In this document: positions 13,879-58,693 of the stretch, in pieces
Layout of the letters: each line of letters opens with the position of its first letter
How positions within the stretch are numbered: position 1 is the first letter of the stretch
DNA from: Kiritimatiellia bacterium
GTDB lineage: Bacteria > Verrucomicrobiota > Kiritimatiellia > WLWN01
Reading direction: 5' to 3'
Assembly (NCBI GenBank): GCA_012103575.1
Contig: WLWN01000001.1
Coordinates: 1,676,538-1,740,537, forward strand
DNA: 64,000 nucleotides
The notes under the pieces: model-generated
Told to the model about the DNA's origin: nothing
Databases searched by the model: none
Seen by the model: only the letters and a program-made list of their open reading frames with translations
Position numbers and translations under genes: made by a program

Positions 13879-15042
13879 GGTGGACTTTCTAATATGACAC
13901 GCCTATAGAAGACAAAAAAAAGAGAAAGACATGGAACAAATCAAGAGTAGTATTCATCCCCGAAAAGGCAAGCATTTGACACAGAAAGAACGGATCATGA
14001 TTGAAACAATGCTCAAAAACCGAGGACGTCCTTTGGAGATAGCCAGCTATCTGGGAAGGCATCGTCGAACCATAGAGCGCGAAATTAAACGTGGGGAGGT
14101 AGAGCATTTCGATACAGAGCTGCGAAAGAAGAAAGCATACAGCAGTGATCGAGCCCAGGAACTTCATGATCTAAATGCGACGGCCAAGGGACCTGAGCTT
14201 AAGCTTGGAAAGCATCATGAAACGGCCGTGTTTATCAGCGAGCACATTCTTGTTCACAAACGCTCACCCGATGTGGTTGCTCCTTTGCTTAAACAAGAGC
14301 AGAGACCTGCAGCGGTGAGTACAAAAACGCTGTATACCTATATTGACCAAGGTCTCATCCCGGGGGTGAGCAACGAGTCCCTATGGGAAAAACGAAAACG
14401 GATAAAACGAAAAAGACGTGCTATTAAGCGGGTTAAAAAGCAACATGCCCGAAGGACCAGTATCGAAAAACGACCTAAGACCGTAGAAAAACGCGAGGAA
14501 TCTGGGCACTGGGAATTGGATTTGATCGTCGGCGGAAAAGGAACTTCAAAACCGGTTTTAATGACGTTAGTAGAAAGAAAGACCCGAATGCTAAGGGTGA
14601 GAAAACTTTCGGATAAAACACAGGCATCGGTTCTGCAGGCCCTCAAAGCGATCGAAAGATCGATGGGAGTTGGCCCATTCAGATCGATGTTCAAGTCGAT
14701 TACAGCCGATAACGGGAGCGAGTTTCTCGACGTGGAGCAGATGGAACGTTCCGGATTTAGCAAAAAGAGACGTGTTAAACTCTATTATGCTCACCCGTAT
14801 TCTTCCTGGGAACGAGGCTCCAACGAAAATGCCAACCGTATGGTTTGTCGTTTCGTCGCCAAAGGAGACAACATCGGAAAATATACCATCGACCGTATTG
14901 GTGAGATTGAAAAATGGATTAACAACTATCCTCGCAAGATCCTAGAATACAAACCCGCACAGGAGTGTTTCGATTTGGAGATCGCCGCATGAACAGAAGC
15001 TCTCAGGTCCATTTTTTGCGGCATTTAATTTTACAATCCACC
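13879..15042 (+). mobile_element. IS30-family insertion sequence, type B, copy 1
   Basis: Second copy at 42077-43284. The shared right end is ...GCATTTAATTTTACAATCCACC. The left terminus keeps only GGTGGA of the IR; about 45 bp are missing relative to copy 2. Confidence 0.75.
13931..14992 (+). CDS. IS30-family transposase, type B (353 aa)
   Basis: HTH (ERIMIETMLKNRGRPLEIASYLGRHRRTIEREI), HWELD, DNGSEF, ERGSNENANRM, NNYPRKILEYKP. It carries a 15-bp insertion (IKRKR) relative to the copy at 42188. Confidence 0.85.
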   Translation: MEQIKSSIHPRKGKHLTQKERIMIETMLKNRGRPLEIASYLGRHRRTIEREIKRGEVEHFDTELRKKKAYSSDRAQELHDLNATAKGPELKLGKHHETAVFISEHILVHKRSPDVVAPLLKQEQRPAAVSTKTLYTYIDQGLIPGVSNESLWEKRKRIKRKRRAIKRVKKQHARRTSIEKRPKTVEKREESGHWELDLIVGGKGTSKPVLMTLVERKTRMLRVRKLSDKTQASVLQALKAIERSMGVGPFRSMFKSITADNGSEFLDVEQMERSGFSKKRRVKLYYAHPYSSWERGSNENANRMVCRFVAKGDNIGKYTIDRIGEIEKWINNYPRKILEYKPAQECFDLEIAA

Positions 15043-17223: not shown

Positions 17224-17379
17224 CCTGGAATGTAGCAGAACGGGTGCAGACCTATACGCACCCTTTGTGGAGGGTGTAGGACAAATTTATTGAGACGCAG
17301 AGGTTCCTAGGCTATATCGGTCCCAAATAGTGCATAAAAGTCGCATCAAAAATATTCATGTCATTGAAGCATATATTGA

Positions 17380-19037
17380 CCTGAATCCGTTAGCTATCGC
17401 TTCGGAAGGCGTTTTGGGGCTCAAAAGCTGAAAATTTTTTCCTTGAGATGCTCGCTTTTGGGCGGATTGGGACCGGCAAGTATCACCCTGATGAATTTTT
17501 TGAGCGTACAGGTCAGATTCACTCTGATTTGGCCATTTTGGGGCGTAGGCCTCCTTGGGCAGTCGCCTTAGAGTATTGTTAAAGGTGCACGGAGGGCTAT
17601 GCGAAGGAATGGGCAATATCTTGTATCACTTCAAACCAGCGACAACGCTTGCCAAAGTGAAGTTCAATTCGTCCGGCGTGGCGGACCAATCGAACCGCGC
17701 AATAAACGATATTTTTGAGAACCGTTTTGATTCGCCAGCGCGGGATGTTGATTTTCTGCGGGGCAAGCCCAGCCCGTTTGATGACCTCTTGGCCAAGACC
17801 GCGCAATAGGTTGAAGGCCACCATGGCGCATAACAGAATAATCTTATTGGCACAGGGTCTCCCCGAAGGCAATCGCTCAACATCAAGATCGCTTTTGAGT
17901 TCACTGTGGTACTGCTCGCTGGGGCCATGTCCATGATAGAGATCTAGCACCGTCTTGGCACGACAAGAGAGGTTCGTCCACCAGGTGTTCACCTCAAGTT
18001 TAGGAACCAAAAGTTTCTGACCATCGATATCGATGGTGCGTTCAATCACTTCGAAGGCCACCGGGACACAAGGGTGGTTTTGGTCACCACCGGGATGGAA
18101 ATGATCGAAAAAGCCTGTGTAAACGTTCTTGCCTTCACGACTGTCTTGTTTGTCTCCAACTCGGCGTGCAAGGGCCAGCATTTGTTCAGGACATTCGCGG
18201 CGAGGATTTCGCTTTACGATAAAATAATGATCCCCAAAAGCGTCGAAGTTATCGGCCGCAGCGTTGCCACTATCAAGCCGAAGCAAACATTTTCCACCCA
18301 GGCCCAGGGTTTGGAGCGTTTCAACGCTGCGGGCAATAAACGCGGTCGTTCCCGACTGACAATGTTGTTTGCCGGGTCGAAGTTCGCACTCAAGCATGTG
18401 GCCTTGAGTGCCCACATAGGCAAATATCGGGGCGTAACCATCATGGCCCTTATAGGTGTAGGAAACGCCTTCTTTCGAAGAGCCTGAGTGATCCAAAGGG
18501 CTCACATCGATATCGACGGGAACAAGATCAAGCCCTTCGACATCTACCTAGCCAAAGGGGCCCGAGGAAAGAAGTTCGGTGTTGAGTTTGCGTAGCCCCA
18601 CATGGGTTCTGGCTGGGGGCAGGTCGTCGAAACGACGTCGGAACACCGGCTCAGAGGCTACTTTTTTAACTCCCCTTTTTAAGTCTAAAGGCATTCATAA
18701 AAATCTCATCACCCCGGTACAGGTCGATATCATTGAAATCGGTTCGACCGTTGCAAAGTAAGCCGATCTGGGTAAGGAGGATCTCCCGATCAGAGATCGC
18801 ATCGGAGCGGCGTGGTTGAAAATTGGAGGGAAGAATCCGTTGAGCATGATCCTCAAGCAGCAGGCCGCAAAGATGATTTCCGCTTGTGCTGTTGAGTTCG
18901 CTCTTGCCAGTCTTTATTTTATATTGTTTCATATACACACCTGTTGGGGTGGGGTTGTTTGTTTGAATACGGGTATGCTCCCCGCTTTAGCCCAACAGGT
19001 AATGAAAAATCGTCAGATTTTATCTGACGGATTCAGG
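17380..19037 (-). mobile_element. IS1380-family insertion sequence, copy 1 (1658 bp)
   Basis: Termini are CCTGAATCCGT(C/T)AG inverted repeats. A perfect 5-bp direct repeat ATTGA flanks it at 17375-17379 and 19038-19042. A second 1658-bp copy lies at 56074-57731. Confidence 0.9.
17597..18938 (-). pseudogene. IS1380-family transposase, interrupted (frame change after ...AFRLKKGS, in-frame TAG at 18548-18550)
   Basis: The N-terminal 90-aa ORF (18666-18938), a middle segment KKVASEPVFRRRFDDLPP...GPFG*VDVEGL, and the C-terminal ORF 17597-18505 (SYTYKGHDGYAPIFAY...RLDSGNAAADNF) are colinear but not in one frame. Confidence 0.8.
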
Positions 19038-19198
19038 ATTGACTATAAGGTTCGGTAAGCTCAAAATTTTTCTTAAAATCCCAACTTGATCTTTTTATGG
19101 GGTCTATTTTACCTTAGTTATACTCAACGTTTAGCTAAAATTTTTTTGGAAGGAAACATTCCGCAAGAACGAAAAAAATCTCGAAACAGAATAGGGAT

Positions 19199-19275
19199 TG
19201 GTGGCGAAGGTGGGACTCGAACCCACGACACATGGCTTATGAAGCCACTGCTCTAACCGACTGAGCTACTTCGCC
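19199..19275 (-). tRNA. tRNA-Met (anticodon CAU; elongator or Ile2-type, not initiator-like), CCA encoded
   Basis: Reverse complement is GGCGAAGTAGCTCAGTCGGTTAGAGCAGTGGCTTCATAAGCCATGTGTCGTGGGTTCGAGTCCCACCTTCGCCACCA. It folds as a clean cloverleaf with 7-bp acceptor stem GGCGAAG/CTTCGCC. The anticodon stem has no run of three G-C pairs. Confidence 0.9.
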
Positions 19276-19324
19276 ACAAAAAACATATAACCGTAAGGAA
19301 GTATAATAGGCTTTGTCAATACTC

Positions 19325-19360
19325 AGCCATTCTAATTTTGATTTCAAAATTAGAATGGCT
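19325..19360. promoter_or_regulatory. A/T-rich palindrome upstream of tRNA-Met, next to a TTGACA hexamer
   Basis: AGCCATTCTAATTTTGATTTCAAAATTAGAATGGCT (15-bp arms), about 50 nt upstream of the tRNA 5' end. Related elements occur upstream of tRNA-Val and the SRP RNA. Confidence 0.45.
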
Positions 19361-19545
19361 CGTTCTTTGTTGTTGGTTCTTCTTTAATGGGAAGTTATTT
19401 TTTTAGTACAGATCAAATATGATCATGAACATATATAACCTACATTCAGCGATAAGGAACAGCCCGTCGTACCCATCCCTTGATCCGCCTAGCATTAGGT
19501 AAAGAATCTTGACCCACTAATAGATAACTAATAACTATTCCCAAC

Positions 19546-28325: not shown

Positions 28326-28426
28326 TCAAGTAGTAAGTGCAATATTCTTTGAGATAAGAGAAATGAAAACTTTATTGAACATTTGGTTAGGAGTTTTGTA
28401 TCCACGGGTTTTTCTGGGTCTATTAT
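28326..28426 (-). pseudogene. C-terminal 33 codons of a third IS30-family transposase, truncated by IS630
   Basis: The minus strand reads NNRPRKTRGYKTPNQMFNKVFISLISKNIALTT*, the IS30 C-terminal signature. It abuts the IS630 end at 28427. Confidence 0.6.
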
Positions 28427-29416
28427 TAGAGCGCTTCACGATTGAGGTGTCGCGATGTAGCACGAAGAAAACCAGCCGATTACCTCGTCGGGAGAAACCT
28501 CTTCGAACGCTTGTGTGAGCGCTTCAGATAGTTCCTGCGGGCTGCAAGGCTGCCCAACCGATTCTTTATCTTGCCCCACATTTTTTCAATGGGGTTGGAA
28601 TCGGGGCTGTAGGGTGGAAGGAATCTTACATGGGCCCCACATGACTCAATGAGTTTAATGACCTTGGGATTGTGATGGACGCGAAGATTGTCCATGATGA
28701 CGATGTCTTCAGGTGAAAGAGTCGGGAGAAAAACCCGGCGAATATATTCTCCAAAAACAGCCGTGTCTGTCGCCCCCTCCCTCTCCATGGCCGCTGTTGT
28801 TCCGTCCAGGCGGACTGAAAAAATCAAGGTGGTGGTACACCAATGTCCATGAGGCGTTTTGGCAAAAAGCCTGTTCCCGCCCAACGCCCGGCCCCGCAGA
28901 CAAGTCATATTCGTTTTCGCCCCGGATTCATCAATAAAGACAAGGCGACTTGGATCAAGTTTGGCTACCTCTTGGATCCACTGCTTTCTCAAGAGATTTA
29001 CATCCGCCCGGTCTTGCTCGCTGGCGTGAAGCGTTTCTTTTATACCGGCAGCCCAACCGATTCAACGCCCGCTGTACGGCCATGATCGACCCCTTCACGC
29101 CGCTCATGTTCTTGAGTTCTTCAAGCGTTGCATCGGGATGTTTGCCCCCCAGTTGAGCCAACGCCTTGAGCTGCTCGCTGTAGAGGGCCTGACGATGCCC
29201 ACGCGGTCGGGGAGCGGTCTGTCCGGTTTCGTTGAAACGAGAGAGCCCACGCTGAAACGTTCTAAGATCTACACGATAAGAAGATACGATATCGGCCTGG
29301 GAACCTTTGCCCATTTTGTAGGCATCTATCGCACGCCGCCGGATTTCTGCTGTTGCTATACTCATGTCATGGAGCATAGATCTTCTAAAGAGGCATTTCA
29401 ATCGTTAAATGCTCTA
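28427..29416 (-). mobile_element. IS630/Tc1-mariner-family insertion sequence, copy 1 (flanked by TA)
   Basis: The ends are defined by comparison with 45003-45937. The TIRs are TAGAGCGCTTCACGATTGAGGTG and TAGAGCATTTAACGATTGAAATG, with a TA at both junctions. Confidence 0.85.
28480..29401 (-). pseudogene. IS630-family transposase split into two frames (HTH part 28955-29401, DDE part 28480-28992)
   Basis: The N part ends ..LNRLGCRYKRNAS. The DDE part (ETLHASEQDRADVNLLRKQWIQEVAKLDPSRLVFIDESGAKTNMT) is in the +1 frame. Copy 2 is in frame at this point because of a 4-nt difference. Confidence 0.7.
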
Positions 29417-29926
29417 GCTTTGCCTTGGCCATTGAGCTCACGAAATTTGTATATAGCAACAGTACTTTCTTTACTGCTCTCTTGGTATGCAAAAAATGCA
29501 GCTACGTATGGCGACCGAGTCCAATCTAGTAAAGGCGTCGGAAAACCATGATGCCGAATATAAACCATAAATCCGTAATTCTCAGGAGATGAAGGTTCAT
29601 CTCTATTCTCAAATACTGTTTCCCAGTTTTGATCTGTTAGCGATTCAAATGCCGCGATTGTCGGCTTAAGGATCTTTGTGTTGTATTCTATGATTGCAAG
29701 TAGTTCATCGTTTCGTCTTTCAAGTGTCGATTCAAGTTTCCACGAAGCACATTTATGGCCCCTAAAGAGGAGCTCGGAAAAATAGTAGTCCGCTTTGCTA
29801 AGGCGCTGCTCACCCTTTTGTAATTCCTTTTAGCCCAAATGGTTCGTGCAGAAAACCGCGTTTAACTGACGGATCCAGGATAGAGTTATCTGGAATTAAT
29901 TCGGTATATCTTTTTGACATAGACAT
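29417..29926 (-). pseudogene. FRG-domain protein, N-terminal part; disrupted by a half MITE near codon 17 and cut by IS630 at 29416
   Basis: MSMSKRYTELIPDNSI, then the MITE, then ..EQRLSKADYYFSELLFRGHKCASWKLESTLERR...YIRHHGFPTPLLDWTRSPYVAAFFAY. The FRG and HyG(L/F)PTxLLDWT motifs of the FRG domain are present. Confidence 0.65.
29813..29879 (+). repeat. Half copy (right arm only) of the 163-bp MITE
   Basis: CCCTTTTGTAATTCCTTTTAGCCCAAATGGTTCGTGCAGAAAACCGCGTTTAACTGACGGATCCAGG matches the right half of 44474-44636. The left half is absent. Confidence 0.8.
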
Positions 29927-37655: not shown

Positions 37656-37682
37656 TATGACCCAGATGCGCCTCAAATAACT

Positions 37683-37718
37683 AGCCGTTCTAATTTTGAT
37701 TTCAAATTTCAAATGGCT
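37683..37718. promoter_or_regulatory. Degenerate copy of the A/T palindrome upstream of tRNA-Val, followed by a TTGACT -35-like hexamer (37724-37729)
   Basis: AGCCGTTCTAATTTTGATTTCAAATTTCAAATGGCT, then GTGAC-TTGACT-16 nt-TAAGCT, with the tRNA 5' end 16 nt further on. Confidence 0.45.
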
Positions 37719-37767
37719 GTGACTTGACTTCGTAAAGCAGACCGTTAAGCTACCCCTCTTATTTTTC

Positions 37768-37842
37768 GGGCGGTTAGCTCAGCGGGAGAGCGGCTGGTTT
37801 ACACCCAGTAGGTCACAGGTTCGAATCCTGTACCGCCCACCA
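37768..37842 (+). tRNA. tRNA-Val (anticodon UAC), CCA encoded
   Basis: GGGCGGTTAGCTCAGCGGGAGAGCGGCTGGTTTACACCCAGTAGGTCACAGGTTCGAATCCTGTACCGCCCACCA. Acceptor GGGCGGT/ACCGCCC, anticodon loop TTTACAC, T-loop GGTTCGAATCC. Confidence 0.92.
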
Positions 37843-41288: not shown

Positions 41289-41543
41289 GATATCCTCCGG
41301 GTTGTGGTTAGTTGTGGAGGCTACGGCCCGAGGTGGCTATACAATGGATTCTGTCCTGGGGGAGTCGCCTGGAGCGCTCGCCAATGAATGATGGCCAACT
41401 CAGACCCAAACTTCGTATGGGGCACAAGGCACCAATATCTTTAGGGGGGCTTAACTGCCGTAGCTTTCATGACATTTACACCTTACCGGACTCCAGTTTC
41501 AACCCTGAATGATCCAGCAAAGAGACCATGCTGGTGGCGAAAC
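41289..41543 (-). ncRNA. Candidate bridge (guide) RNA region in the 5' non-coding end of the IS110-family element
   Basis: A 255-nt non-coding leader lies upstream of the recombinase ATG. A 10-nt segment TTCTGTCCTG (41349-41358) is repeated 4 nt beyond the recombinase stop codon (39895-39904). The call is inferred from the published IS110 bridge-RNA architecture; I did not fold or model it. Confidence 0.35.
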
Positions 41544-42031
41544 TTCGGGGAGACTCTGTGCCAATAAGATTATTCTGTTATGCGCCATGGTGGCCTTCAA
41601 CCTATTGCGCGGTCTTGGCCAAGAGGTCATCAAACGGGCTGGGCTTGCCCCGCAGAAAATCAACATCCCGCGCTGGCGAATCAAAACGGTTCTCAAAAAT
41701 ATCGTTTATTGCGCGGTTCGATTGGTCCGCCACGCCGGACGAATTGAACTTCACTTTGGCAAGCGTTGTCGCTGGTTTGAAGTGATACAAGATATTGCCC
41801 ATTCCTTCGCATAGCCCTCCGTGCACCTTTAACAATACTCTAAGGCGACTGCCCAAGGAGGCCTACGCCCCAAAATGGCCAAATCAGAGTGAATCTGACC
41901 TGTACGCTCAAAAAATTCATCAGGGTGATACTTGCCGGTCCGAATCCGCCCAAAAGCGAGCATCTCAAGGAAAAAATTTTCAACTTTTGAGCCCCAAAAC
42001 GCCTTCCGAAGCGATAGCTGACGGATTCAGG
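41544..42031 (+). mobile_element. IS1380-family element, 3' remnant (about 488 bp), truncated at the IS110 junction
   Basis: Near-identical to 57244-57731, including the right terminus ..GCGATAGCTGACGGATTCAGG. It encodes only the last ~90 aa of the transposase (..RLCANKIILLCAMVAF...IQDIAHSFA). Confidence 0.85.
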
Positions 42032-42076: not shown

Positions 42077-43284
42077 TGAGAATTGTAATATTAAATGCCC
42101 AAAAGAAGATATTGTAAAACAGGAGTGTTCCATGCCGAAATCTTCTAGATTTAGAAACTCGACAGAAGACAAAAAAAGGAGAAAGACATGGAACAAATCA
42201 AGAGTAGTATTCATCCCCGAAAAGGCAAGCATTTGACACAGAAAGAACGGATCATGATTGAAACAATGCTCAAAAACCCAGGACGTCCTTTGGAGATAGC
42301 TAGCTATCTGGGAAGGCATCGTCGAACCATAGAGCGCGAAATTAGACGTGGAGAGGTAGAGCATTTCGATACAGAGCTGCGAAAGAAGAAAGCATACAGC
42401 AGTGATCGAGCCCAGGAACTTCATGATCTAAATGCGACGGCCAAGGGACCTGAGCTTAAGCTTGGAAAGCATCATGAAACGGCCGTGTTTATCAGCGAGC
42501 ACATTCTTGTTCACAAACGCTCACCCGATGTGGTTGCTCCTTTGCTTAAACAAGAGCAGAGACCTGCAGCGGTGAGTACAAAAACGCTGTATACCTATAT
42601 TGACCAAGGTCTCATCCCGGGGGTGAGCAACGAGTCCCTATGGGAAAAACGAAAAAGACGTGCTATTAAGCGGGTTAAAAAGCAACATGCCCGAAGGACC
42701 AGCATCGAAAAACGACCTAAGACCGTAGAAAAACGCGAGGAATCTGGGCACTGGGAATTGGATTTGATCGTCGGCGGAAAAGGAACTTCAAAACCGGTTT
42801 TAATGACGTTAGTAGAAAGAAAGACCCGAATGCTAAGGGTGAGAAAACTTTCGGATAAAACACAGGCATCGGTTCTGCAGGCCCTCAAAGCGATCGAAAG
42901 ATCGATGGGAGTTGGCCCATTCAGATCGATGTTCAAGTCGATTATAGCCGATAACGGGAGCGAGTTTCTCGACGTGGAGCAGATGGAACGTTCCGGATTT
43001 AGCAAAAAGAGACGTGTTAAACTCTATTATGCTCACCCGTATTCTTCCTGGGAACGAGGCTCCAACGAAAATGCCAACCGTATGGTTCGTCGTTTCGTCG
43101 CCAAAGGAGACAACATCAGAAAATATACCATCGACCGTATTGGTGAGATTGAAAAATGGATTAATAACTATCCTCGCAAGATCCTAGAATACAAACCCGC
43201 ACAGGAGTGTTTCGATTTGGAGATCGCCGCATGAACAGAAGCTCTCAGGTCCATTTTTTGCGGCATTTAATTTTACAATCCACC
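42077..43284 (+). mobile_element. IS30-family insertion sequence, type B, copy 2 (both IRs present)
   Basis: The left IR TGAGAATTGTAATATTAAATGCCC matches the inverted right end GGTGGATTGTAAAATTAAATGCCG. The right end lies 5 bp before the recR start codon. Confidence 0.8.
42188..43234 (+). CDS. IS30-family transposase, type B (348 aa)
   Basis: Same protein as 13931-14992, minus the 5-aa IKRKR insertion and with a few substitutions. Confidence 0.85.
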   Translation: MEQIKSSIHPRKGKHLTQKERIMIETMLKNPGRPLEIASYLGRHRRTIEREIRRGEVEHFDTELRKKKAYSSDRAQELHDLNATAKGPELKLGKHHETAVFISEHILVHKRSPDVVAPLLKQEQRPAAVSTKTLYTYIDQGLIPGVSNESLWEKRKRRAIKRVKKQHARRTSIEKRPKTVEKREESGHWELDLIVGGKGTSKPVLMTLVERKTRMLRVRKLSDKTQASVLQALKAIERSMGVGPFRSMFKSIIADNGSEFLDVEQMERSGFSKKRRVKLYYAHPYSSWERGSNENANRMVRRFVAKGDNIRKYTIDRIGEIEKWINNYPRKILEYKPAQECFDLEIAA

Positions 43285-43904: not shown

Positions 43905-44438
43905 ATGAGAAAGATTATCGATTTTTTAATGCGTTTATTTGGGAGAAAACATGAATGGTTTAAAGGTCCTGGACAGGAAAAAGGGCGCGTTGAGCGATGG
44001 TTGAGGGTGCCTTGTGCCGAAGGCGCTAGAAATTTTAACTTTAGAAAAGATTTTATGGATTATGACCTTGTCCCAGCTGAAGGGTTCTCTAATGACTTCG
44101 GGCACTGGTTTAAAGAACCGTTTAATCATGTAAAAGTAGGCGGGTATACACAGTATTTAGGCCAGCAGAGCGGTGGTTACAGATTCCTCGTTCGATGTGC
44201 CTTAAATCCTTCTATAAATGGGGCGGATGAGACGACGGGCTTACACGAATGTGGGCATGTTCGCTTACTTCCAGATATTCAAGGCCATCCTCTACGGTTT
44301 AAAAAATGTTTTCCCATATGGCGTTTTTCAATTCGTCCTAGATCAGAAGAAGATGATGATCTCTATTTGCCAGAGGTGGCCAGTATGGTCTTCGATGAAA
44401 ATGGGGAAGTTCTTTATGAGGAGTCTAAAGAAATTTGA
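43905..44438 (+). CDS. Hypothetical protein (177 aa), no domain recognised
   Basis: Uninterrupted ORF starting 13 nt after recR. There are no convincing motifs; VGGYTQYLGQQ faintly recalls YwqG/DUF1963 but this is not supportable. Confidence 0.4.
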   Translation: MRKIIDFLMRLFGRKHEWFKGPGQEKGRVERWLRVPCAEGARNFNFRKDFMDYDLVPAEGFSNDFGHWFKEPFNHVKVGGYTQYLGQQSGGYRFLVRCALNPSINGADETTGLHECGHVRLLPDIQGHPLRFKKCFPIWRFSIRPRSEEDDDLYLPEVASMVFDENGEVLYEESKEI

Positions 44439-44473
44439 AAATTTGAAAGATAACAAGAGGGCTCTGTCTTTTT

Positions 44474-44636
44474 CCTGGATCCGTCAGTTAAACGTGGGAT
44501 TTCTGTGCGAATGGTTTGGAGGCAAAAGGTTGCAAAAAAACGCAGGCGCACCCGCTGGGTACGTCGAGGCTTTTTTGTAATTCCTTTTGGCCCAAATGGT
44601 TCGTGCAGAAAACCGCGTTTAACTGACGGATCCAGG
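44474..44636 (+). mobile_element. 163-bp MITE, copy A (IS1380-like termini, TSD TTTTT)
   Basis: CCTGGATCCGTCAGTTAAACG...CGTTTAACTGACGGATCCAGG, flanked by TTTTT at 44469-44473 and 44637-44641. The element is a long imperfect palindrome. Confidence 0.85.
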
Positions 44637-44865
44637 TTTTTGTGTACAAAAACTGAATCCGACCGTAGGGCTCGAAATAGAACCTACTCCAAACGCCCTC
44701 TGTCTGACTTTCATTGGCACAGAGGGCGAGAGGGTTCGTGGAGATTTTCTGTTGACCCCCTCCAACTTCTGAAATGAAACATGGCTTAAACATATTTCAT
44801 CCTTCTCTCAGATCAAGCGCCTTCGCCTAGGCGTAGGTTGTGTGATCCGCATAAATATTGGCAAG

Positions 44866-45002
44866 TTAGGAAGGTCCGGTTGAATTTGGTCTCTCGTAAT
44901 TATCGCACAAGTCCTTTAAAAGCGTGCGAAAACTGTGAACCGGTATGCCTTCATAAGCAGGCTTGAGATAGTTAATCAACTGGATCATCGTTTTCAATAA
45001 CT
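44866..45002 (-). pseudogene. Orphan C-terminal ORF fragment, proposed 3' half of the FRG-domain gene at 29417-29926
   Basis: The minus strand reads (K)LLKTMIQLINYLKPAYEGIPVHSFRTLLKDLCDNYERPNSTGPS*. It is open only in the frame that continues ..ELNGQGKA when the two IS630 flanks are joined over a single TA. Confidence 0.4.
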
Positions 45003-45937
45003 TAGAGCGCTTCACGATTGAGGTGTTGCGATGTAGCACGAAGAAAACCAGCCGATTACCTCGTCGGGAGAAACCTCTTCGAACGCTTGTGTGATCGCTT
45101 CAGATAGTTCCTGCTGACTGCGGGCTGCAAGGCTGCCCAACCGATTCTTTATCTTGCCCCACATTTTTTCAATGGGGTTGGAATCGGGGCTGTAGGGTGG
45201 AAGGAATCTTACATGGGCCCCACATGACTCAATGAGTTCAATGACCTTGGGATTGTGATGGACGCGAAGATTGTCCATGATGACGATATCTTCAGGTGAA
45301 AGAGTCGGGAGAAAAAGTTGTTCCGTCCAGGCGGACCGAAGAAATCAAGGTGGTGGTACACCAATGTCCATAAGGCGTTTTGGCAAAAAGCCTGTTCCCG
45401 CCCAACGCCCGGCCCCGCAGACGAGTCATATTCGTTTTCGCCCCGGATTCATCAATAAAGACAAGGCGACTTGGATCAAGTTTGGCCACCTCTTGGATCC
45501 ACTGCTTTCTCAAGAGATTTACATCCGCCCGGTCTTGCTCGCTGGCGTGAAGCGTTTCTTTTATACCGGGAAACCGATTCAACGCCCGCTGTACGGCCAT
45601 GATCGACCCCTTCACGCCGCTCATGTTCTTGAGTTTTTCAAGCGTTGCATCGGGATGTTTGCCCCCCAGTTGAGCCAACGCCTTGAGCTGCTTTCTGCTG
45701 TAGAGGGCCTGACGATGCCCACGCGGTCGAGGAGCGGTCTGTCCGGTTTCGTTGAAACGAGAGAGCCCACGCTGAAACGTTCTAAGATCTACACGATAAG
45801 AAGATGCGATATCGGCCTGGGAACCTTTGCCCATTTTGTAGGCATCTATCGCACGCCGCCGGATTTCTGCTGTTGCTATACTCATGTCATGAAGTATAGA
45901 TTTTCTAGCGAGGCATTTTCAATCGTTAAATGCTCTA
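45003..45937 (-). mobile_element. IS630-family insertion sequence, copy 2 (internally deleted, defective)
   Basis: It has the same termini as copy 1 and TA at both junctions. A roughly 62-bp internal deletion (near 45318) removes part of the DDE domain. ORFs 45292-45885 and 45012-45278 are fragments. Confidence 0.85.
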
Positions 45938-48874: not shown

Positions 48875-49167
48875 GCTGTGCTAGACGGGGAGGTAGCGGT
48901 GCCCTGACTCCCGCGTAAGCGGGATGACCTGCAATCCGCTGTAGCAGGGTTTAATTCCTGAGTAAGATATCAACCTAGGATGATACATGCTATAGATAGG
49001 TGTTGATAGCTAGACCCTATGTGGCGAATACGGGTGAACCCCGTCAGGATCGGAAGATAGCAGCGGTAAGTCATGTTGTTCGGGTACCGTAGTGTGTTCT
49101 GGCTAGAGTCTTGAAATAGTGGTTGTACGCCGATCGTTGGTGTCGAACAAAGGTGCACAGCTTTTTT
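48875..49167 (+). ncRNA. ffs: Signal recognition particle RNA, large (Bacillus/scRNA-type, with Alu domain)
   Basis: 5' GTGCTAGACGGGGAGGTAGCGGTGCCCTG...CCTGCAATCCGCTGTAGCAGGG matches the B. subtilis scRNA Alu domain. The helix-8 motif is GAACCCCGTCAGGATCGGAAGATAGCAGCGGTAAG. The 3' CGAACAAAGGTGCACAGC pairs with the 5' GCTGTGC, followed by TTTTTT. It sits directly upstream of dnaX, as in Bacillus. Confidence 0.88.
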
Positions 49168-50978: not shown

Positions 50979-51302
50979 ATGGTCAACATGATGAAGTTAA
51001 TGAAGCAAGCTACTTCTATGCAAAAAGACATGAAAACCCTTCAATCTAAACTTGCTGAACAGTCCGTAGAGTTTTCAAGTGGGGGAGGGATGGTAACGGT
51101 TATTGCAAAGGGTGATATGTCGATTGAAAGCATAAAAATTGATCCTAAAGTGGTTGATCCTGAAGATGTAGATATGTTGGAAGATATGGTGAAAGCCGCT
51201 GTTGATGGTGCGCTTAAACAGGCACGAGATATGGCTGCTCAAGAAATGGAAAAAGTTACTTCTAGTCTTGGTTTACCGCCCGGAATGGACCTTCCTTTTT
51301 GA
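50979..51302 (+). CDS. ybaB: Nucleoid-associated protein YbaB/EbfC
   Basis: 107 aa. MQKDMKTLQSKLAEQSVEFSSGGGMVTVIAKGDMSIESIKIDPKVVDPEDVDMLEDMV is the family signature. Located downstream of dnaX. Confidence 0.9.
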   Translation: MVNMMKLMKQATSMQKDMKTLQSKLAEQSVEFSSGGGMVTVIAKGDMSIESIKIDPKVVDPEDVDMLEDMVKAAVDGALKQARDMAAQEMEKVTSSLGLPPGMDLPF

Positions 51303-51318
51303 TGGGGAGACAAATAAT

Positions 51319-51481
51319 CCTAGATCCGGCAGCTAAACGTGGGGTTTCTGTGCGAATGCCTTGGAGACAAAAGATTGCAAAAAAACGTAGGCGCACCCAC
51401 GGGGTGCGTCGAGGCTTTTCTCTAATTCCTTTTGGCCCAAATGATTCGTGCAGAAAACCGCGCTTAACCGCCGGATCTAGG
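51319..51481 (+). mobile_element. 163-bp MITE, copy B (variant termini, TSD ATAAT)
   Basis: CCTAGATCCGGCAGCTAAACG...CGCTTAACCGCCGGATCTAGG, flanked by ATAAT at 51314-51318 and 51482-51486. Confidence 0.85.
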
Positions 51482-51510
51482 ATAATCAATAGGAATGTAC
51501 AGATACCCCC

Positions 51511-53310
51511 ATGATGGTCACTCCTATACATGTCTTAAGTGATCAAGTCGCCAACAAAATTGCTGCGGGCGAAGTGGTTGATCGTCCTGCTTCTGTCGTG
51601 AAAGAACTGATGGAAAACGCCTTAGATGCAGGGGCGACACACATTGATGTAGAAATCGTATCTGGAGGTCGTAAACTCATCTCTGTATCCGATAATGGTC
51701 ACGGAATGGATCGTGATAATGCCTTGCTTTCTCTGGAACGACATGCCACCAGTAAAATCAAAGATGTGGATGATATAGAACGCGTAGACACGTTAGGGTT
51801 TAGAGGTGAAGCGCTTGCTGCCATTGCTTCCGTATCACGTTTTTCCCTCACAACCCGAACGGCGGAAGCGTTATGCGGGACGGAAATAACTGTTTCCGGA
51901 GGCAAAATCCAAGATGTACAAGAAAGAGGATGTCCGCCTGGGACTAAAATGCAGGTCCGTAACCTGTTTTTTAATGTGCCGGCTCGTCGCAAATTTCTTC
52001 GTACAGAACAAACAGAGCAGTCCCATGTCCGCCAGGTGTTCCTTGTTTATGGATTATCGTATCCGGCCGTTGATTTAAAGCTCACGGTGGATTCTCGCGA
52101 ACTCTATCGTTTAGCCGGAGGGGCGACATTAGAAGAAAGATTACGTGATTTATATAGTGCGGCTTTTGTAGAAACATTGCGAGTCGTTTCGTATGAGCAA
52201 GATGGCGTAAAAATAACGGGGTGTGTGGGGTTGCCTCAAACGCACCGAGGAGATCGATCGGAGCAGTATATCTTTATTAATGGACGTCCGGCTAGTGCCC
52301 CCATATTGGGCGCTGCCATCAACGAAGCGTATCAGACCCTTATTCCTAAAGGACGGTATCCCCTGGTTTTTCTTTTCATTGAATTAGATCCATCCATGGT
52401 CGACATAAATGTGCATCCGACGAAAAAAGAGGTGAGATTTCGGCGTCCGGGTTTGGTGCGGGATATACTCATTGAAAGCATTCGTTCCGCTTTGACGACG
52501 GCATCGGCAGGGAGCGATTCAGCGCTACCTACTATGCCTGTACAAGAAGAATCCCGCTTCACCAAACCGATTTTAAAAATAGAAAATATGCCCACCACCC
52601 GCACATTCCAATATCCGCGTATGCCCTTAATTTCCGAAGAAACGGCTCAAGTAGACACTAGAGAACCCTCTTCTTCTTCTTTGCCTTTACCTCTAAACGA
52701 TGAGCAGGACATCTCTTCAAAGAACGGACCGTGGACTTCCTGTCGTGTTTTAGGACAAGTTGGGGGCCTTTATGTGATTTTGGAAACAGAAGGAGGGTTG
52801 GTTTTAATGGATCCTCATGCAGCTCATGAACGCATACTCTTTGAACGGTTTATGAACGAAGTTCTTGGTCATAAAGTGAAAGGGCAAGGTCTTCTTGTTC
52901 CAGAAACAGTAGAGCTGGGTCCTCAAGATGCGTTACGCGTAAGAAAAAACATGACGTTATTTGAAAAAATGGGGTTTGGAATTTCAGAATTTGGGGGTGA
53001 TACCTTTATTGTTGATGCGATACCTAATTGTTTAGGCAATGTTTCAGCGCTATCTGTATTAGCGGATGTGGCCCATAGTTTTGAGCGAGGAGGCGCACGG
53101 GGAGGGACCGAAAAATGGGCGGAAGAAAAAGTGGCTCGAGCCGCTTGTCGGGCTGCCGTCAAAGCGCGGGATAAACTAACCTTAGAAGAAATTGAGCAAC
53201 TTGTCGTTGACTTGGCTCGAGCTGAGATGCCGTATACGTGTCCTCATGGTCGGCCTACTCTGATATTGATGAGCTTTCCAGAGTTAGATAAGAAGTTTGG
53301 AAGGGCTTAG
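51511..53310 (+). CDS. mutL: DNA mismatch repair protein MutL
   Basis: GHKL ATPase AAGEVVDRPASVVKELMENALDAGAT, DNGHGM, GFRGEAL. The C-terminal dimerisation domain has a DPHAAHERILFE endonuclease-type motif. Confidence 0.95.
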   Translation: MMVTPIHVLSDQVANKIAAGEVVDRPASVVKELMENALDAGATHIDVEIVSGGRKLISVSDNGHGMDRDNALLSLERHATSKIKDVDDIERVDTLGFRGEALAAIASVSRFSLTTRTAEALCGTEITVSGGKIQDVQERGCPPGTKMQVRNLFFNVPARRKFLRTEQTEQSHVRQVFLVYGLSYPAVDLKLTVDSRELYRLAGGATLEERLRDLYSAAFVETLRVVSYEQDGVKITGCVGLPQTHRGDRSEQYIFINGRPASAPILGAAINEAYQTLIPKGRYPLVFLFIELDPSMVDINVHPTKKEVRFRRPGLVRDILIESIRSALTTASAGSDSALPTMPVQEESRFTKPILKIENMPTTRTFQYPRMPLISEETAQVDTREPSSSSLPLPLNDEQDISSKNGPWTSCRVLGQVGGLYVILETEGGLVLMDPHAAHERILFERFMNEVLGHKVKGQGLLVPETVELGPQDALRVRKNMTLFEKMGFGISEFGGDTFIVDAIPNCLGNVSALSVLADVAHSFERGGARGGTEKWAEEKVARAACRAAVKARDKLTLEEIEQLVVDLARAEMPYTCPHGRPTLILMSFPELDKKFGRA

Positions 53311-56047: not shown

Positions 56048-56073
56048 GGTTTTTGATTGATGAAAGAATTAGA

Positions 56074-57731
56074 CCTGAATCCGTCAGATAAAATCTGATG
56101 ATTTTTCATTACCTGTTGGGCTAAAGCGGGGAGCATACCCGTATTCAAACAAACAACCCCACCCCAACAGGTGTGTATATGAAACAATATAAAATAAAGA
56201 CTGGCAAGGGCGAACTCAACAGCACAAGCGGAAATCATCTTTGCGACCTGCTGCTTGAGGATCATGCTCAACGGATTCTTCCCTCCAATTTTCAACCACG
56301 CCGCTCCGATGCGATCTCTGATCGGGAGATCCTCCTTACCCAGATCGGCTTACTTTGCAACGGTCGAACCGATTTCAATGATATCGACCTGTACCGGGGT
56401 GATGAGATTTTTATGAATGCCTTTGGACTTAAAAAGGGGAGTTAAAAAGGTAGCCTCTGAGCCGATGTTCCGACGTCGTTTCGACGACCTGCCCCCACCC
56501 AGAACCCATGTGGGGCTACGCAAACTCAACACCGAACTTCTTTCCTCGGGCCCCTTTGGCTAGGTAGATGTCGAAGGGCTTGATCTTGTTCCCGTCGATA
56601 TCGATGTGAGCCCTTTGGATCACTCAGGCTCTTCGAAAGAAGGCGTTTCCTACACCTAGAAGGGCCATGATGGTTACGCCCTGATATTTGCCTATGTGGG
56701 CACTCAAGGCCACATGCTTGAGTGCGAACTTCGACCCGGTAAACAACATTGTCAGTCGGGAACGACCGCGTTTATTGCCCGCAGCGTTGAAACGCTCCAA
56801 ACCCTGGGCCTGGGTGGAAAATGTTTGCTTCGGCTTGATAGTGGCAACGCTGCGGCCGATAACTTCGACGCTTTTGGGGATCATTATTTTATCGTAAAGC
56901 GAAATCCTCGCCGCGAATACCCTGAACAAATGCTGGCCCTTGCACGCCGAGTTGGAGACAAACAAGACAGTCGTGAAGGCAAGAACGTTTACACAGGCTT
57001 TTTCGGTCATTTCCATCCCGGTGGTGACCAAAACCGCCCTTGTGTCCCGGTGGCCTTCGAAGTGATTGAACGCACTATCGATATCGATGGTCAGAAACTT
57101 CTGGTTCCTAAACTTGAGGTGAACACCTGGTGGACGAACCTCTCTTGTCGTGCCAAGACGGTGCTAGATCTCTATCATGGACATGGCCCCAGCGAGCAGT
57201 ACCACAGTGAACTCAAAAGCGATCTTGATGTTGAGCGATTGCCTTCGGGGAGACTCTGTGCCAATAAGATTATTCTGTTATGCGCCATGGTGGCCTTCAA
57301 CCTATTGCGCGGTCTTGGCCAAGAGGTCATCAAACGGGCTGGGCTTGCCCCGCAGAAAATCAACATCCCGCGCTGGCGAATCAAAACGGTTCTCAAAAAT
57401 ATCGTTTATTGCGCGGTTCGATTGGTCCGCCACGCCGGACGAATTGAACTTCACTTTGGCAAGCGTTGTCGCTGGTTTGAAGTGATACAAGATATTGCCC
57501 ATTCCTTCGCATAGCCCTCCGTGCACCTTTAACAATACTCTAAGGCGACTGCCCAAGGAGGCTTACGCCCCAAAATGGTCAAATCAGAGTGAATCTGACC
57601 TGTACGCTCAAAAAATTCATCAGGGTGATACTTGCCGGTCCCAATCCGCCCAAAAGCGAGCATCTCAAGGAAAAAATTTTCAACTTTTGAGCCCCAAAAC
57701 GCCTTCCGAAGCGATAGCTGACGGATTCAGA
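56074..57731 (+). mobile_element. IS1380-family insertion sequence, copy 2 (1658 bp)
   Basis: CCTGAATCCGTCAGATAAAATC ... GCTGACGGATTCAGa, with the terminal G replaced by A. A 5-bp direct repeat TTAGA flanks it at 56069-56073 and 57732-57736. Confidence 0.9.
56173..57514 (+). pseudogene. IS1380-family transposase, interrupted (same frame change and TAG as copy 1, plus an extra TAG)
   Basis: Frame change after ..AFGLKKGS*, TAG at 56561-56563 (GPFG*VDVEG), and an additional SYT*KGHDGY where copy 1 has SYTYKGHDGY. Confidence 0.8.
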
Positions 57732-58518
57732 TTAGATATAAATAGTTTATTAGAATGTGCAATGGCGGCTGCATATGCTGCCGGGAATCATGCTGTCAAA
57801 GAATTTGATCGTCGAACAGAAGTGATTCAAAGAACGCAGCATGATGTGAAACTCGTGCTGGATCGAGAAGCGCAGGATCAAGCGGAGGAATCCATCCGCG
57901 CCTTTTTCCCGGATCACAATATTATAGGCGAAGAAGGTTAATCCCTCTTAGATCCATCACGACCTAGTTGGATTATTGATCCGATTGATGGCACCGTAAA
58001 TTTTTCATATGGCATTTCTCCTTGGTGTTCTTCTGTCGCTGTACAGGTTGAAAATCAAGTTCTGGCGGGCGCCGTATATATTCCTCCATACGAGGAAATG
58101 TATACCGCCACCCTTGAAAGTCCTGCGTTATGCAATGAGAAACCGATTCAAACGTCCTCGATCTCTTTGCTTGCTGACTTGCTGATTTTGACAGGACTCT
58201 CCAAAAACGCGCATGATGAATCAGAGCCCTTTAAAGGGCATGAGGCTTTAACGCGTAAAACCCAAAAAATCCGGATTATTGGCGCGGCTGCTGTAGATAT
58301 TTGTCAGGTTGCCTGCGGCAGAGCAGAGGCCTATGTGGACAGCGGTATTTATCTTTGGGATGCCGCGGCCGCTGGACTTATTGCTGAACGGGCTGGCGCC
58401 TATACAAAAACCGAACCCTTAGGTGATTACCGAGTCAATTATATGTGTTCGAATACGCTTATTCAAAAAGAGCTGATTGCGACACTCTCGTGAGAGGCTC
58501 TTAAATTCTTGTTATAGT

Positions 58519-58681
58519 CCTGGATCCGTCAGTTAAACGCGGTTTTCTGCACGAACCATTTGGGCCAAAAGGAATTACAAAAAAGCCTCGACGCACCCAG
58601 CGGGTGCGCCTGCATTTTTTTGCAACCTTTTGCCTCCAAAGCATTCGCACAGAAATCCCACGTTTAACTGACGGATCCAGG
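58519..58681 (-). mobile_element. 163-bp MITE, copy C (inverted relative to A and B, TSD ATAGT)
   Basis: CCTGGATCCGTCAGTTAAACGCGG...CCACGTTTAACTGACGGATCCAGG, flanked by ATAGT at 58514-58518 and 58682-58686. Confidence 0.85.
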
Positions 58682-58693
58682 ATAGTGTCAAAG

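Follow-up and report, generated by a model that had tools for sequence, protein, structure and literature searches.

A 163-bp MITE family in a Kiritimatiellia bacterium with ends matching those of an IS1380-family insertion sequence

A stretch of 64,000 nucleotides from a Kiritimatiellia bacterium (contig WLWN01000001.1 of assembly GCA_012103575.1; the whole stretch is referred to as the window) contains several copies of a 163-bp palindromic repeat and of a 1658-bp insertion sequence (IS). What is the short repeat, and which transposase moved it? The original prediction was that it is a MITE family mobilised by an IS1380-type transposase, since its termini and target-site duplications (TSDs) resemble those of the longer element. 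The repeats and insertion sequences of the window are:

44474..44636, + strand: MITE copy A, main subfamily, 163 bp
51319..51481, + strand: MITE copy B, old and divergent (~89% identity to consensus), 163 bp
58519..58681, - strand: MITE copy C, inverted relative to A, 163 bp
29816..29879, + strand: MITE copy D, partial, right arm only, 64 nt, 98% identity to A
17380..19037, - strand: IS1380-family copy 1, 1658 bp; TSD ATTGA at 17375-17379 and 19038-19042
56074..57731, + strand: IS1380-family copy 2, 1658 bp; TSD TTAGA at 56069-56073 and 57732-57736
41543..42031, + strand: IS1380-family partial copy, the last 489 bp, ending ...CTGACGGATTCAGG
113-1069: IS30-family element
13931-14992: IS30-family element
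42188-43234: IS30-family element
28426-29401: IS630-family element, broken
45002-45918: IS630-family element, broken

The three full MITE copies lie exactly where they had been predicted, each is exactly 163 bp long and each is flanked by a perfect 5-bp direct repeat: TTTTT for copy A (44469-44473 and 44637-44641), ATAAT for copy B (51314-51318 and 51482-51486) and ATAGT for copy C (58514-58518 and 58682-58686). A repeat finder grouped A, B and C as one family and added D, a half copy that had been overlooked in the earlier count of three. Both ends of copies A and C read CCTGGATCCGTCAG, as predicted. Copy B has the termini CCTAGATCCGGCAG and CCTAGATCCGGCGG, so its right end was misread as ending in GCAG; it carries two changes, each compensated on both arms. 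Copy A lies 35 nt past the stop codon of an ORF (43905-44438), copy B sits between ybaB (50979-51302) and mutL (51511-53310), and copy C lies 25 nt 3' of an ORF for an inositol-monophosphatase fragment (58098-58493).

The element is short, with no transposase gene, no family match and no bounded ORF of its own. The statement that it has no coding capacity is thus right in that no gene is present, but one frame is open throughout. Each full window copy, the divergent copy B included, has this stop-free frame through the whole element in either orientation, which may be due to chance (roughly 1 in 6). No Rfam family reached the gathering score on the MITE, the best being a weak match to a miRNA-precursor hairpin (E = 0.31), and a plasmid collection held no DNA match to it.

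Metagenome contigs were scanned with the 20-nt MITE terminus, which gave at least 39 loci. The listed loci, the window and a few further fetched contigs contain at least 64 MITE matches, representing at least 37 distinct full-length insertion sites; truncated copies are also present in the retrieved contigs. These further sites come from contigs of Mycale hentscheli sponge metagenomes and belong to the same organism as the window, where the density is 3.5 copies in 64 kb. For both the scan of metagenome contigs and that of a genome collection, the number of copies and the range of hosts are minimum values, and the true number of copies is higher. The 37 aligned copies among the matches listed are 163-164 bp long.

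Duplications like those in the window were found at many more copies. At the 37 sites among the matches listed, 28 TSDs are perfect 5-bp repeats, one is of 6 bp, three match at 4/5 positions and five sites have none; when the pentamers compared were moved 5 nt further out as a control, 0/74 matched. The duplicated pentamers have no fixed sequence and are 87% A+T, compared with 56% A+T in the whole window.

A young subfamily makes up 33/37 copies among the matches listed; seven of the 33 match the consensus exactly and the rest are 1-4 bases off. The four old copies in this set have 85-90% identity to the main consensus and 80-89% to each other. As 7/33 copies equal the consensus and the two full IS copies differ by only 1.3% (22 positions), the main MITE subfamily has spread recently, at roughly the time when the 1658-bp IS multiplied.

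A second scan, of a genome collection with a degenerate 21-mer, gave at least four loci, three of which were rejected: each is a lone chance match in an unrelated bacterium, where the surroundings do not resemble a MITE. The fourth is real: positions 1-50 of JAALKB010000137.1 (L006), a contig that begins inside the MITE. This contig is labelled 'Gammaproteobacteria bacterium MH1_Bin6', is 99.9% identical to a sponge-metagenome contig (L021) and has a G+C content of 46%, like the window. It may be mis-binned, or the element may also be present in a second symbiont. A locus from a JGI metagenome (L007) was set aside, as it shares only the 20-mer and is possibly a chance match.

That the copies arrived by insertion was examined by in-silico excision, in which the element and one pentamer were deleted at each site and ORFs crossing the scar were sought. 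Excision restored long ORFs in at least three genes, in two of which Pfam domains span the junction. After excision, locus L045 encodes a MacB/FtsX permease of 402 aa in which the junction, at residue 215, falls within the MacB_PCD domain (residues 47-250), L017 encodes a caspase-domain protein (domain 68-265, junction at 206) and L010 encodes a 919-aa FG-GAP/ASPIC protein. Judging from these reconstructions, the three genes would have been intact before precise insertion with a 5-bp duplication. A search for empty orthologous sites retrieved none: neither the all-against-all comparison of flanks nor the other assemblies around copies A, B and C gave an empty allele or a polymorphic insertion, and these three copies are present in every sponge specimen and assembly of these regions.

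Two discontinuities were seen among the retrieved contigs. L046:1404 and L050:1067 match the window to the last base of copy A (44636/44637), then diverge and continue into other genes (peptidase S41, TsaD) with no matching pentamer; either two MITE copies recombined at this junction or the assembly was joined through the repeat. Contig WLWF01002631 (L001:1-3662) follows the window (99.97%) from 47190 on but has different genes (porin, phosphate-binding protein) upstream of that point. Its breakpoint, beside IS630 remnants, is either a strain rearrangement or a mis-assembly.

Membership of the 1658-bp element in the IS1380 family, as had been proposed, is borne out by the product of its longest ORF, a 302-aa fragment, which scores 214.9 bits on NCBIfam NF033539 (cut-off 180); homologues of the transposase carry Pfam PF13701. 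Copies 1 and 2 are mutually inverted. The distal end of copy 1 is CCTGAATCCGTTAG, and the final base of copy 2 is mutated (TCTGAATCC...). The IS also makes A/T-rich 5-bp duplications: ATTGA and TTAGA were both confirmed, and A+T makes up 85% of the pentamers that adjoin 19 distinct IS ends, compared with 87% for MITE TSDs and 56% for the window.

The ends of the two elements are almost the same. The MITE end CCTGGATCCGTCAG and the IS end CCTGAATCCGTCAG are identical at 13/14 positions, the figure originally given, and at 17/19 over the first 19 nt; the MITE carries CCTGGATCCGTCAGTTAAACG at its ends in inverted orientation. With up to two mismatches, the 14-mer CCTGRATCCGTYAG occurs 11 times in the window compared with 1.09 expected, and all 11 occurrences are ends of MITEs or IS1380 copies. 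The similarity persists with more copies: when the 37 copies among the matches listed are aligned, the columns of the 14-bp ends rank with the most conserved. The differing position is position 5, which is G at both ends of the main MITE family and A in every IS end examined (in the window and in fetched relatives). In one old MITE copy (L041:1075) the end is exactly that of the IS type.

Unrelated metagenomes yielded five distinct relatives with an intact transposase (P0005, P0010, P0041, P0002 and P0004; 70-77% amino acid identity), one of them from a Spartobacteria MAG, and all five share the IS-type terminus CCTGAATCCGTYAG with at most one changed base. Four relatives have CCTGAATCCGTTAG, with T at position 12, and one-base variants are found in P0010 (CCTGAATCCGTTGG) and at one end of P0041 (CCTGAATCCGTGAG). 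The relatives are also of similar size, being 1658-1666 bp where both ends are on the contig (P0005 1658 bp, P0004 1660 bp).

Given the matching termini and the shared duplication length and target composition, the best explanation is that the MITE family was mobilised by the transposase of this IS1380-family clade, which we consider very probable. The MITEs would be non-coding passengers bearing the 14-bp sequence by which the ends of this clade are recognised. Its DDE transposase, supplied in trans, would bind two CCTG(G/A)ATCCGTCAG ends and insert the MITE into A+T-rich pentamers by a 5-bp staggered cut, giving the 5-bp duplication. The original proposal of non-autonomous elements moved by an IS1380-type transposase is thus well supported by ends, TSD length and targets, with the identity of the protein that moved them being what we infer from these. 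Past the first ~19 nt the IS and the MITE have no sequence in common, so the IS is not the parent of the MITE by simple internal deletion. It is best regarded as a relative of the MITE source, not as a demonstrable parent.

The missing internal similarity, together with the G at position 5 of both ends of the main MITE family where every examined IS end has A, could instead point to a different, unsampled transposon, and the defects in all IS copies present agree with this. Such a transposon would be either a sister IS1380-family element with CCTGGATCC... ends, the true parent now being lost or rare, or a member of another family that makes 5-bp duplications. However, ends matching at 13/14 positions, the same TSD length and A+T-rich targets would be very unlikely in an unrelated family. 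Contigs with MITEs, ~440 kb in all, were searched with the transposase by tblastn and gave no further type of IS1380, and no pair of MITE-type (CCTGGATCCGTCAGTTAAAC) ends at IS-like spacing, as an IS-sized element with such ends would have, was found in the 39 loci listed. 'Solo' MITE-type ends in L015, L032 and L033 were considered as traces of a parent IS and rejected, being truncated MITEs or ambiguous. The other IS families of the window, IS30 and IS630, make other duplications (2-3 bp or TA). We therefore judge an unsampled transposon to be an unlikely source, and a sister IS1380 element would still fit mobilisation by an IS1380-type transposase.

An intact transposase of this IS was looked for elsewhere in the genome. 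None was found among the proteins searched, and all copies seen are frameshifted by the same 13-nt insertion. This insertion, TTAAAAAGGGGAG, is present in every IS copy that covers the region (both window copies and L011:9374-9796) and shifts the transposase frame after ~86 codons. An in-frame TAG is likewise common to both window copies, with TAC in its place in L034, and copy 2 has additional stop codons. In contrast, the transposase of the relatives is one uninterrupted ORF of 440-441 aa, where the window gene is split by the insertion and the TAG.

The same break is seen on a larger scale in a Kiritimatiellae MAG of the same organism as the window (GKR87_, 3.1 Mb). The IS ORF at 17597-18505 is an exact member of a 146-protein cluster, all listed members of which are on one contig of this MAG (3,096,896 bp). 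Its N-terminal pieces comprise 40 distinct sequences under > 45 accessions, almost all of 88 aa; nearly all end at residue 88 because of the shared 13-nt insertion. There are > 160 C-terminal pieces, none longer than 304 aa except for an IS630 fusion. An annotated 551-aa 'IS1380 transposase' (P0127) was rejected as an intact copy, since it is an IS1380 C-terminal fragment fused to an IS630 transposase. No ~440-aa protein with > 77% identity was found in 5.8 billion proteins, including those annotated in the 3.1-Mb genome; the best full-length relatives are 76-77% identical and come from other samples.

The IS has apparently reached dozens to > 100 copies with a broken transposase gene. Either it multiplied while already broken or it was homogenised afterwards, and possible routes are a split transposase, mobilisation in trans by a master copy now lost, or gene conversion. 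If the transposase is split, the 88-aa N-terminal DNA-binding part and the catalytic part may act as two polypeptides. As all IS copies seen carry the broken gene, neither the IS nor the MITE now has an evident transposase source; both are probably immobile at present, and the mobilisation is probably past rather than current.

The transposase-proximal end of the IS (56082-56100 in copy 2; 19011-19029 in copy 1) can pair locally as an 8-bp hairpin, CGTCAGAT-AAA-ATCTGACG, to which the terminal repeat contributes its inner half. No obvious counterpart was seen in the fetched relatives, whose ends were read by eye.

The MITE itself is, as described originally, a long palindrome with a central hairpin. 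Copy A folds as a single 70-pair hairpin (-103.9 kcal/mol, z = -13.2) with the core GCGCACCC-GCT-GGGTGCG, and the fold of the old copy B is weaker (-78.3 kcal/mol, z = -8.0). The arms co-vary: eight pairs (12 cells) show double-sided changes in the 37-copy alignment of the matches listed. In controls, 0/500 shuffles reached eight pairs, and sliding the partner by 1-3 columns gave 0-3 pairs. Three of the double changes are in the terminal 14 bp, at positions 4 and 11 (copy B) and 13 (L011). The fold includes seven G.U pairs, four of which (columns 22/144, 33/133, 34/132 and 74/92) are wobble or Watson-Crick in nearly all copies. On the strand shown, young copies have no A.C pairs and copy B has six. 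The conserved G.U asymmetries indicate that the subfamilies descend from one asymmetric ancestor and not from repeated fold-back events. The co-variation itself might be caused by a transposase that needs two matching ends, by template-switch correction of quasi-palindromes or by selection on structure.

In the core, a G+C-rich stem of 7-9 pairs is preceded by an A-run and followed by a T-run. In a pattern scan it was among the top terminator-like sites on both strands of all three full window copies. The core looks like a putative intrinsic terminator on either strand, and a new insertion might stop transcription. Many MITE copies lie 10-130 nt from the 3' end of a gene. No orientation bias relative to neighbouring genes was seen, with ~10 copies co-oriented with the adjacent gene's 3' end and ~10 opposite when the ORF table was counted roughly by hand.

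The very stable fold (z = -13), the co-varying arms, the seven conserved G.U pairs with no A.C pairs on one strand, the terminator-like core on both strands and the position of many copies near gene 3' ends might suggest a host-selected structure, a bidirectional terminator or mRNA-stability hairpin spread and conserved by selection and not by transposition, but this is very improbable, as the precise 5-bp duplications and disrupted genes mark insertion by transposition, there is no orientation bias, old copies gain uncompensated mismatches (the six A.C pairs and -78 kcal/mol of copy B), Rfam gave no match, and template-switch correction or a transposase needing two matching ends could also explain the co-variation.

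Mobilisation by the IS1380-family clade therefore stands as the preferred reading. A stronger reading, in which the arms of this possibly first IS1380-linked MITE co-evolve and the IS spread with a frameshifted gene (through a split transposase or as riders on a lost master copy), is doubtful as a whole. If arm co-evolution is real, the hairpin or a strict symmetry of the ends may be needed for transposition itself.

Window genes recur at 99.9-100% identity in assemblies WLWD-WLWI and JAAHTG/H, samples SAMN12718690/91 and run SRR10090328, which are metagenomes of the sponge Mycale hentscheli (PMC7157528). One Kiritimatiellaeota symbiont is described from this sponge, the pateamine producer 'Candidatus Patea custodiens' (PMC7157528, PMC7196800), and the organism of the window is probably this uncultured defensive symbiont. 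Repeats and insertion sequences are not discussed in either paper. Just upstream of dnaX, at 48876-49160 (+), the window encodes an SRP RNA of the large bacterial type (Rfam RF01854, 111 bits), as fits a member of the PVC group better than a gammaproteobacterium. Another palindromic repeat, of ~45-55 nt (AGCCATTCTAATTTTGATTTCAAAATTAGAATGGCT), was seen at 19315-19369 and 37674-37728, with 80-84% identity between copies; it adjoins both tRNA genes (19202-19275, - strand; 37768-37839, + strand).

The window is crowded with further insertion sequences, several of them degraded. This crowding and the IS1380-IS630 fusion are the pattern of a genome in a phase of IS expansion and decay, and the MITE and its partner IS are remnants of the kind of IS expansion that bacteria typically undergo on the way to host restriction. 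Many contigs end inside MITE or IS repeats; these MITE repeats and > 100 IS copies are why the symbiont genome assembles badly from short reads. The disruption of genes by the repeats, and their possible role as rearrangement points, bear on genome decay in a defensive sponge symbiont.

How does this pair compare with known systems? Palindromic repeats of other kinds are readily set apart. REP/BIME sequences moved by RAYT, a tyrosine (HUH) transposase, are palindromes of 20-40 nt with no duplication, which excludes them for a 163-bp element with constant 5-bp duplications. Rickettsia palindromic elements (RPEs) are closer, being likewise palindromic repeats of ~100-160 bp in a host-associated bacterium, with a frame open in both orientations. 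RPEs are known for in-frame insertion into genes that stay intact. The MITE differs in having clear TSDs and IS-type ends, and an RPE-like in-frame element was rejected because the ORFs at L010, L045 and L017 are interrupted by the insertions.

Members of the IS1380 family are 1.5-2 kb long, with ends that start with CC and duplications of 4-5 bp. The 1658-bp elements resemble the family (IS1380, IS1247, ISEcp1 and ISAzo40) in length, CC ends and duplication length; the MITE shares the CC... terminus, 5-bp duplication and A+T-rich target but encodes nothing. Named members in the plasmid collection have only 33-42% protein identity to the window transposase, and the closer relatives (70-77%) are unnamed metagenome sequences, one from the Spartobacteria MAG. 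A further difference from the family is that the transposase gene is in pieces in every copy here. A well-defined 14-bp end sequence is now available for an IS1380 clade in which no named or characterised member was found.

IS1380 transposases are the prokaryotic outgroup or relatives of piggyBac, and piggyBac-related MITEs occur in eukaryotes (PMC10813416). Both insert at short A+T-rich targets, a comparison by analogy only; piggyBac duplicates a fixed TTAA (4 bp), whereas the duplications of the 163-bp MITE are of 5 bp with no fixed sequence. IS1380, as a family of bacterial piggyBac relatives, would join the IS families known to have spawned MITEs. The pairing had been put forward as undescribed, and the searchable literature gives no counter-example: no published MITE for the IS1380 family was found there (ISfinder and TnPedia lay outside this search, and a database entry may exist), and a full-text search of a 2024 review of prokaryotic MITEs (PMC10969869) shows that the term 'IS1380' is absent from it. 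This is apparently the first reported MITE paired with the IS1380 transposase family.

Bacterial MITEs are in general short, non-coding and multi-copy, with terminal inverted repeats that match an IS and duplications of the IS length; they are mostly intergenic and can fold as a long hairpin (PMC10969869, PMC3184786). The 163-bp element has the short length without a transposase gene, the terminal inverted repeats, the TSDs of constant length and the many dispersed copies of a bacterial MITE, and shares these general features with MITEs derived from IS ends, such as Correia/NEMIS of Neisseria, Nezha, Chunjie, MITEAba12 and the QMITEs of Coxiella. Current ideas are not overturned, and the MITE-IS pair is a fairly ordinary case of a parasite of a parasite; added interest comes from the co-variation of the arms and from the puzzling expansion of the IS despite its broken transposase gene. 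It differs from the other MITEs derived from IS ends in that its partner is an IS1380-family element and in that its whole 163 bp forms one hairpin with co-varying arms.
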